A stretch of DNA of 64,000 nucleotides from Escherichia coli (GCF_024223415.1 NZ_CP100500.1); one strand, 5' to 3'. Shown: positions 12,631 to 12,944, counted from the stretch's first letter. A program made the numbers and translations. Notes: generated from the letters alone by a model not told the origin.

Positions 12631-12879
12631 TTAGTGAAAAAACCAGTCATCAGCAGTTTCCCAGACTTCCTGCAGCGTTTCCTGTATGAACTTCTGAGCG
12701 TTTTCTTTATCTACGGCTCTTAAAATTGTCAGTCCGTCATTACTGGCGGATTTTACTATAACCTCCACATCGTCATATCGTTTTCTGATACGGCGAGACA
12801 TTTCCTGTTGTAGAGCAGGTACAGAGCCTTTTGGCATTTTGCTGAATTTTTCTTTAGCGATACAGATCTCAATACGCAT
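12631..12879 (-). CDS. dinI: DinI-family protein (prophage-encoded)
   Basis: 82 aa; MRIE.IAK...SRRI...[14 protein letters not shown] matches E. coli DinI throughout; SD AGGGA upstream; LexA boxes in promoter. Confidence 0.85.
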
Positions 12880-12892
12880 AAAAGTCCCTCTA

Positions 12893-12944
12893 CACTGTGT
12901 TTGTATACAGTATTATTTTTAACTGTATGGATAAACAGTGTCAA
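12893..12944 (-). promoter_or_regulatory. SOS promoter of the dinI-like gene with two tandem LexA boxes
   Basis: CTGT-N8-ACAG at 12895-12910 and 12923-12938; minus-strand -35 TTGACA (12939-12944) and an AT-rich -10 overlap the boxes. Confidence 0.7.

Follow-up and report, generated by a model that had tools for sequence, protein, structure and literature searches.

A DinI-like gene with two predicted LexA boxes over its promoter at the end of a lambdoid prophage in Escherichia coli

DinI stabilises RecA filaments and, at high dose, also inhibits their coprotease activity. The residues involved in the contact are known: L13, L21, W71, W77 and F78 of DinI form a pocket for residue F203 of RecA loop L2, and E24, E69 and D76 lie opposite a basic patch in the groove of the RecA filament (Gao et al. 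2023, PMC9926225). Filament stabilisation is impaired if any of these residues is mutated. The same groove site is used by LexA, UmuD and lambda CI (PMC9926225).

Homologues of dinI are also carried by prophages. [quoted passage not shown] Nalidixic acid raises the expression of the three genes by factors of 4.6 to 23 (PMC8072944). When the Gifsy dinI homologues were removed by non-polar deletion, induction did not change significantly (PMC3121763), and for this reason the phenotype of the gene described here, if any, may be subtle too. For E. coli, lower expression of the prophage dinI-like gene c0943 of CFT073 was found in an evolved strain, in which dinI, recN and the LexA-controlled genes sulA and umuD also went down (PMC2817434). 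That the DinI of Stx phages would limit induction has been put forward as a hypothesis (PMC8456039). Promoters with multiple LexA boxes have been described as well: in Salmonella, recN has three boxes and lexA has two (PMC8072944). In the literature searched (most subscription journals lay outside it) we found neither a description of a double operator in the E. coli lambdoid dinI-like cassette nor any study of the function of these genes.

The gene that we describe lies in a 64,000-nucleotide stretch of E. coli DNA, referred to below as the window. A first-pass annotation, made from the sequence, had read it as a DinI-family gene under two SOS boxes at a prophage end. The locus is one more copy of a common, already annotated prophage cargo gene, and its predicted regulation matches the Gifsy precedent. 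The exact protein is already present in RefSeq (WP_072720893.1, 'DinI-like family protein'). Coordinates of all features are provided in Table 1.

Table 1. Features of the dinI-like locus and the adjoining prophage end; positions are counted from the first letter of the window.
Feature	Coordinates	Strand	Basis or remark
Hairpin, 9-bp stem AGGCGUGUU/AACACGCCU, 9-nt loop, then UUUCUGAUAUUU	12537..12563	-	RNA fold
DinI-like CDS, 82 aa + stop	12631..12879	-	ORF list, profile matches, K-12 DinI identity, model fit
Shine-Dalgarno-like AGAGGGA, 5 nt before ATG	12885..12891	-	read from the sequence; purine-rich motif there in relatives
LexA box 1 (proximal, predicted), TACTGTATACAAACACAGTG on gene strand	12893..12912		CTGT-N8-ACAG; over the predicted transcription start
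-10 element, TAAAAA (17-nt spacer) or AAAAAT (18-nt spacer)	12915..12921	-	promoter scan; between the boxes
LexA box 2 (distal, predicted), CACTGTTTATCCATACAGTT on gene strand	12921..12940		CTGT-N8-ACAG; fills the -35/-10 spacer
-35 hexamer TTGACA, perfect consensus	12939..12944	-	promoter scan and geometry
Prophage-specific A+T-rich att arm, 136 nt	12946..13081		absent from K-12 and other cassette-bearing prophages
attR core region, 38 nt of the yfhL 5' coding part	13082..13119		present at both prophage ends

The window gene encodes a full-length DinI-family protein. The 82-aa product covers the complete Pfam DinI model (PF06183, E 2.9e-19, model positions 1-63 of 63), matches PHROG 189 'RecA filament binding protein DinI' (E 2.8e-27) and finds the DinI chains of the PDB entries 1GHH and 7YWA by sequence (E 3.4e-13). 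Its identity to K-12 DinI is 48%, running from residue 1 to the ...ADDWF that closes the acidic C-terminal helix. The AlphaFold2 model, based on an alignment of 13 sequences (mean pLDDT 78), predicts a strand, helix, helix, strand, strand and helix in this order, that is, the small alpha/beta fold that marks the family, in which a single domain of about 80 aa ends in a long C-terminal helix. A Foldseek search with this model retrieves 7YWA_A, the DinI of the RecA-DinI cryo-EM structure (TM 0.81, rmsd 1.9), and 1GHH (TM 0.80); the next match down has an E value of 0.02. The family assignment of the first-pass annotation is therefore upheld by the Pfam and PHROG matches, the identity to K-12 DinI, the predicted fold and the RecA-contact residues discussed below.

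The protein is nonetheless distinct from the chromosomal one. It scores 71.3 bits on the NCBIfam model NF007893 (chromosomal DinI equivalog) against a curated cut-off of 111, and because of this lower score we file the gene as a DinI-like paralogue rather than as dinI itself. Proteins of the DinI family are overall acidic and mimic DNA. The window protein has a net charge of 0 and a pI of 6.6, against -5 and 4.7 for K-12 DinI; among the 20 C-terminal residues five are acidic, compared to six in K-12 DinI. Given the difference in charge and the score below the equivalog cut-off, the RecA affinity or target preference of the protein may differ as well.

Aligning the protein with K-12 DinI places M15, L23, W73, W79 and F80 in the hydrophobic pocket and E26, E71 and D78 in the acidic patch. 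Seven of the eight published RecA contacts are thus identical and the eighth is a conservative replacement (L13 to M15). L23, E26, W79 and F80 are invariant among 13 homologues of chromosomal, lambdoid and Gifsy-like origin, and W73 is nearly so. These conserved contact residues suggest that the window protein binds in the groove of the RecA filament.

Both SOS boxes quoted in the first-pass annotation are present as given, caCTGTgtttgtatACAGta at 12893-12912 and aaCTGTatggataaACAGtg at 12921-12940. No other match to CTGT-N8-ACAG exists in the 64,000 bases of the window. By chance 0.62 matches are expected per window, and two or more occur anywhere in 13 of 100 shuffled versions; the two observed here are 28 nt apart and directly upstream of one gene. 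We also scored the window with a LexA weight matrix, which is symmetric and approximate and was compiled from 26 E. coli operators. On this matrix box 1 reaches 20.5 bits and box 2 reaches 21.2 bits, and the next best site in the window has 11.9 bits. Known operators score from 12.8 to 26.8 bits (median 20.4) on the same approximate matrix, so both boxes combine the core match with a score within the proven range. Sites of at least 20 bits were seen in none of 300 first-order Markov simulations of 64 kb (highest score 19.6). A direct repeat of box 1 at 12562-12577 was considered as a third LexA site; it was rejected as a chance match, scoring 8.6 bits and not being conserved in relatives.

The centre-to-centre spacing of the boxes is 28 nt (26-29 nt in relatives), which does not correspond to an integral number of helical turns. 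For this reason the two LexA dimers may not bind cooperatively.

The overlap of boxes and promoter, also claimed in the first-pass annotation, is seen as well: box 2 fills the spacer and box 1 covers the start site predicted near 12908. A promoter scan predicts a sigma-70-like promoter with 10 of 12 consensus matches that overlaps both boxes. On the gene strand the order is TTGACA, CTGTTTATCCATACAG, T, TAAAAA, TAATA, CTGTATACAAACACAG, TGT, AGAGGGA, CTTTT and ATG. Box 2 shares two nucleotides with the -35 hexamer and occupies the 17-18-nt spacer, so that the -10 element is flanked on both sides, by box 2 in the spacer and by box 1 over the predicted start. Each box thus overlaps the core promoter, the promoter itself being predicted. 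The TAAAAAT of the -10 region is conserved in relatives. On the opposite (+) strand a candidate divergent promoter (TCTACA-16-TATTAT, 12889-12916) was discarded: shuffled sequence does as well as its 9 of 12 matches, and it leads into no convincing ORF.

Downstream of the gene a G+C-rich hairpin is predicted 68 nt past the stop codon (z = -2.3 for the 136-nt stretch in the RNA fold). Judged by its fold, it is likely an intrinsic terminator, although an imperfect one. Its interrupted U-tract kept it from being called in the consensus terminator scan, and more distant relatives do not share it. No co-directional ORF of at least 20 aa was found between the stop codon and the hairpin, and the only co-directional ORF beyond the hairpin is a TTG ORF of 22 aa. 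With no co-directional ORF following and a hairpin downstream, the gene looks like a single-gene cargo unit. The gene order of the Gifsy type (dinI, antirepressor, irsA) is not present here, and an antirepressor operon at the window locus was ruled out on the same ground, no small co-directional ORF of at least 20 aa preceding the hairpin. A scan of 11700-13400 against Rfam (E up to 1) found no known RNA families.

To the right of the gene, alignment with K-12 supports the location at a prophage end. Homology to K-12 resumes at 13082 inside yfhL and continues through yfhH, pgpC and tadA to mltF (13082-15792, 95% identity), and all DNA of the window left of that point belongs to the right-hand part of a lambdoid prophage. 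The attR core is 84% identical to the attL copy at L004:7856-7893 over its 38 nt. The adjoining att arm holds direct repeats (13017-13040) and inverted repeats (12978-13029). The original yfhL promoter and the first 16 codons of yfhL are stranded and now point at the boxes.

The prophage as a whole can be seen in NZ_OY754357.1, which matches the 901 bases around the gene (window positions 12300-13200) at 99.8% identity. There an intact yfhL, the first codons of which lie in the end-duplicated sequence, is followed by an integrase and by a CI-type repressor (S24, 'LexA family') that has a divergent HTH gene beside it. Next come the Q antiterminator, the lysis genes and a lambda-like set of head and tail genes, and after the tail fibres a YadA-like protein and an HTH protein of sigma-like type are encoded; the prophage ends with the DinI-like gene and attR, after which yfhH is found. 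The CI-type repressor is seen in this near-identical prophage only, the immunity region of the window prophage being situated outside the window. In the lambda-like prophage inserted in yfhL the window gene takes the terminal position, approximately 140 nt inside attR, and the near-identical genome has it as the last gene before attR.

Next to the single locus we compared the gene with its relatives. From the 198 relatives that an IMG/VR scan returned, 80 loci were retained. The upstream comparison comprises 25 distinct sequences, namely the 24 IMG/VR relatives with enough flank and the window's own. The layout of -35, box 2, -10 and box 1 is kept in 24 of the 25 (23 of the 24 relatives, and the window), with box 2 at -61 to -42 and box 1 at -33 to -14 from the ATG in the relatives. 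At least three promoter variants can be distinguished. The inner bases of the boxes differ between these (e.g. TACTGTATACAAACACAGTA, ACCTGTACATAACTACAGTT and AACTGTACATCTAAACAGTT), but the CTG(T/G) and (A/C)CAG arms are retained in most of the sequences. A few relatives have damaged arms (CTA or CAA in box 2, TTG in box 1), and relative L040 misses the whole promoter. The two-box promoter is also found in the cultured phages mEp460, BP-4795 and P-EibC and in a Stx2c phage. Operators in this layout are, in short, conserved in the promoters of homologous genes.

Similarity between cassettes ends abruptly. Sequences 5' of TTGACA are unrelated among cassettes, and the hits H4-H15 stop at 12945; in more distant relatives the similarity also stops at the stop codon. 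Regulation of att or int by the boxes was considered and ruled out, as the promoter and boxes accompany dinI into unrelated upstream contexts. The window cassette sits between the tail-fibre and cargo genes and att. It has its own promoter and terminator (a predicted promoter and a predicted hairpin), a position between phage modules and recombination boundaries at the edges of the unit, as is the case for morons. Judged by where similarity begins and ends, the cassette behaves as a moron-type unit that moves from phage to phage.

The cassette is also widespread. Of the 5426 complete E. coli genomes, 1172 contain related DNA (at megablast level), in as many as three copies per genome, and tblastn finds homologues in 133 phage records, 63 of which are from Stx-converting phages. 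A crude scan showed ORFs of at least 40 aa downstream of dinI in 54 of the 80 relative loci, most of which are low-complexity artefacts; ORF84 of BP-4795 is among the few real cargo genes at this position.

Taking these observations together, we estimate a probability of roughly 0.8 that the locus is a piece of prophage cargo (a 'moron') with a LexA-repressed two-box promoter, supplying a DinI-like RecA modulator that is gated by the SOS response. The unit would consist of a strong sigma-70 promoter, two LexA operators, a ribosome binding site, the 82-codon dinI-like gene and a lineage-specific hairpin. We infer control of the gene by LexA from the sequence of the boxes and their conservation. 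In an undamaged lysogen two LexA dimers would be bound to the promoter, flanking the -10 element on both sides and excluding RNA polymerase. Upon DNA damage RecA would become active, LexA would cleave itself and the promoter would be freed, firing only if both operators are vacant. Since both operators, each of moderate strength, must be free, repression is expected to be tight, and a deeper depletion of LexA would be needed than for the single-box dinI of the host. SOS promoters with multiple boxes are generally linked to tight repression and to late or dose-dependent induction. Relative to the host dinI, the window gene should accordingly be less leaky, with an onset that comes later or at a higher dose.

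Once made, the window protein would occupy the groove of the RecA filament, as suggested by the conserved contacts. What follows from this is less certain. DinI can stabilise filaments as well as, when its dose is high, inhibit the coprotease, so the sequence does not reveal the sign of the effect. Our best guess is that extra phage DinI, arriving late in a strong SOS response, would stabilise RecA filaments and compete with the slower substrates of the groove (UmuD and S24-type prophage repressors). Mutagenesis might then be damped, and the induction threshold of CI-type prophages in the cell might be raised or induction delayed. The direction of this effect on prophage induction is the weakest step of the mechanism. 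The full version, in which the two-box phage DinI is a late, dose-gated RecA modulator that competes with CI-type repressors and acts as a brake or timer on the induction of its own and co-resident prophages, is speculative, and we consider it unlikely.

If it were true, induction thresholds would be set in trans in polylysogens, Stx phages included. Competition for the groove would also have wider consequences. In about one fifth of the complete E. coli genomes, including many Stx-phage lysogens, one to three additional RecA modulators under SOS control would then be present. This could shift the thresholds at which prophages are induced, Shiga toxin is released and SOS mutagenesis sets in under DNA-damaging antibiotics. 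Competition of this kind would provide a testable link between a common piece of prophage cargo and clinically relevant responses.

A different beneficiary is conceivable. With real LexA sites, the gene might mainly act as a host fitness or lysogenic-conversion factor that limits SOS mutagenesis and killing (for instance by quinolones) with little effect on the prophage. In Citrobacter rodentium the gene is counted among the 'fitness' cargo of prophages (PMC6456863), a link has been suggested between a viral-region DinI-like gene and the emergence of quinolone-resistance mutations (bioRxiv 10.1101/2023.06.20.545734), and both the unchanged induction after deletion of the Gifsy dinI genes (PMC3121763) and the spread of the cassette over E. 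coli genomes agree with such a role. All molecular steps, however, are common to this possibility and the SOS-gated cargo that we favour, the beneficiary being the only difference; moreover, the conserved last-gene position by int and att and the presence in phages with CI-type repressors are equally compatible with a role on the side of the phage. A predominantly host-directed function is thus possible, yet we would not bet on it. Far less probable is that the locus represents a LexA-controlled antirepressor module, of the Gifsy operon or the 186 Tum type, that triggers induction by inactivating a non-cleavable repressor. [quoted passage not shown] The window has no such ORF before the hairpin and only the 22-aa TTG ORF beyond it, though, and its 82-aa protein aligns with DinI from M1, leaving no room for a Tum-like N-terminal extension. 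In addition, the repressor of the near-identical prophage is of the S24 'LexA family' CI type, for which direct cleavage is expected, and the Gifsy-like class differs in layout, with one strong box and an early-region location.

Two further explanations question the boxes rather than the gene, and neither is at all probable. LexA bound to these sites could act mainly on the neighbouring DNA, by blocking read-through from the stranded yfhL promoter or by influencing the assembly of Int and Xis at attR. It would indeed be situated only 1-50 nt away from the att arm, which the boxes abut, and the yfhL promoter with its 16 codons is directed at them. The two-box promoter moves with dinI, however: mEp460 has the 3' end of int upstream of it and other phages have unrelated sequence, and the position of the boxes is fixed relative to -35, -10 and ATG instead of att. 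We regard such a role as highly improbable. The same holds for the proposition that the palindromes, having arisen by chance or decayed, regulate nothing and that the gene is constitutive or silent. The damaged arms in some relatives and the loss of the promoter in L040 would fit with decay. Against it, not even one site of such quality was present in the 300 simulated windows, both sites are located exactly on the core promoter, the CTG/CAG arms survive across promoter variants with differing inner bases, and the homologues of the host and of Salmonella phages are controlled by LexA.

Set against known systems, the closest chromosomal counterpart is dinI of K-12 (b1061; PDB 1GHH, and 7YWA with RecA). 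The two proteins are similar in length (81 against 82 aa) and share the predicted fold, and both genes have a promoter with a LexA box. K-12 dinI has a single box at -39 to -20 (22.5 bits) lying over its -10, whereas in the window gene two boxes flank the -10. Also, K-12 DinI lacks the two-residue insertion that the window protein has after K9, and its gene belongs to the core genome instead of a prophage.

The Gifsy dinI genes are alike in kind, being prophage homologues of dinI under a LexA box, and for these the SOS induction has been shown experimentally. Differences concern the surroundings: Gifsy dinI heads an early-region operon (dinI, the antirepressor gfoA or gftA, and irsA) whereas the window gene stands alone at the prophage end, and Gifsy dinI has one box, 19 nt from the ATG and preceded by a terminator, against two boxes here. 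Gifsy-like in layout is a second, more distant class of phage dinI genes found in mEp237, SEN34, SPN3UB and a Klebsiella phage, the products of which are 33-45% identical to the window protein. These genes have one strong box at -39 to -20 (24-25 bits), an early or nin-region position and a small ORF after each dinI, and in mEp237, SEN34 and SPN3UB a terminator-like hairpin precedes the box; their layout is therefore that of Gifsy (Lemire et al. 2011). Tum of coliphage 186 resembles the window gene in being a LexA-repressed phage gene with DinI homology (PMC3121763). It encodes 146 aa with an N-terminal antirepressor half, whereas the window protein (82 aa) comprises the DinI domain only; a half of this type (approximately 70 aa) is absent, the alignment to DinI starting at residue 1. 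[quoted passage not shown] The boxes of lexA are spaced by about 21 nt against 28 nt in the window promoter, where they are placed against the promoter elements.

Most similar are the lambdoid and Stx phages (mEp460 gp21, BP-4795 ORF85 dinI, phage cdtI, P-EibC and Stx1a-, Stx2a- and Stx2c-converting phages), which carry the same cassette as the window. Among the records listed, their DinI-like proteins show 63-84% identity, and the genes adjoin int or att at the end of the genome. Only the flanks differ from the window: upstream there is a different att arm or integrase, and the 3' flank is different too. In the mEp460 record the promoter is annotated but the LexA boxes are not. Because the other dinI classes have a single box, the predicted double operator can be seen as a signature of the E. 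coli lambdoid 'prophage-end' cassette. Summarizing, the modest new descriptive point is that a conserved two-box promoter, as read from the sequences compared, separates this cassette from both the host dinI and the operons of the Gifsy type.

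Two layouts are seen when the phage dinI loci are compared. In L085, L086, L087 and L093, from lambdoid and Stx phages of E. coli, the gene carries two LexA boxes and forms a single-gene cassette adjoining int/att at the genome end. In L088, L089, L090 and L092 (mEp237, SEN34, SPN3UB and a Klebsiella phage) it carries a single strong box and sits in the early/nin region, with a small ORF, a probable antirepressor, after it. An apparent terminator hairpin precedes dinI in three of the four one-box loci, and this layout is Gifsy-like. In phage BP-4795 (L086), ORF84 starts 156 nt after the two-box dinI on the same strand. 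Its product is possibly a type III effector, and read-through from the SOS promoter could tie its expression to DNA damage in this phage.

Among the 80 related IMG/VR viral contigs (L005-L084), the predicted prophage end coincides exactly with the dinI start codon in 22 and lies within 600 nt of it in a further 16. Automated boundaries therefore often lose the SOS promoter together with the att arm.

Beyond that promoter, the prophage interrupts yfhL, a host gene whose original promoter and opening 16 codons stay behind at attR. The remnant reads into the prophage and is aimed at the dinI promoter. A 38-nt core is present again at attL, the end at which the annotation shows an intact yfhL. The att arm of 136 nt holds direct and inverted repeats, which may be Int, Xis or IHF sites.

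On the other side of dinI, a weak third LexA-like site shows 88% identity to the core of box 1, the first of the two predicted LexA boxes. It is probably due to chance, because it scores only 8.6 bits on the LexA weight matrix and is not conserved in relatives. Downstream of the HTH gene, the A+T-rich spacer contains two unannotated small ORFs, which may encode small membrane peptides or may have arisen by chance; the 31-aa ORF had no match in PHROG.

Features around dinI in the window and in phage BP-4795
Feature	Coordinates	Strand	Remark
YadA-like trimeric autotransporter, 469 aa	10322-11731	+	between tail-fibre genes and dinI
Sigma/LuxR-like HTH protein, 151 aa	11792-12247	+	after YadA-like gene
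Small ORF, 25 aa	12237-12314	+	MLNNVSYIVISVLLLLFFVVFVTNG; very hydrophobic
Small ORF, 31 aa	12359-12454	+	MKITKAAFIFALSVWSVAVICLLLFVLVVLG; very hydrophobic
Weak LexA-like site	12560-12579		CTGAGTATGTATACAG; between dinI stop codon and hairpin
Att arm	12946-13081		
18-nt inverted repeat	12978-13029		in att arm
12-nt direct repeats	13017-13040		in att arm
yfhL remnant	13076-13129	-	MALLITKKCINCDMCEIK*
38-nt core	13082-13119		
BP-4795 dinI	L086 locus 248-496		
BP-4795 ORF84	L086 locus 652-893		'putative avirulence protein'

The YadA-like autotransporter belongs to PHROG 9547. In the near-identical genome NZ_OY754357.1 this protein measures 548 aa against 469 aa in the window, and an IS66-family element (ISCro1-like; L001 8722-11337) separates the YadA-like gene there from the tail-fibre assembly gene. 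The window lacks this element in the corresponding stretch, about 9900-10300. With 37.5% identity to EibC and EibD over 41% of its length, the window autotransporter is a distant relative of the Eib proteins of ECOR-9, which bind immunoglobulin and are encoded by prophages. In phage P-EibC, too, the eib cargo has this dinI cassette downstream of it.
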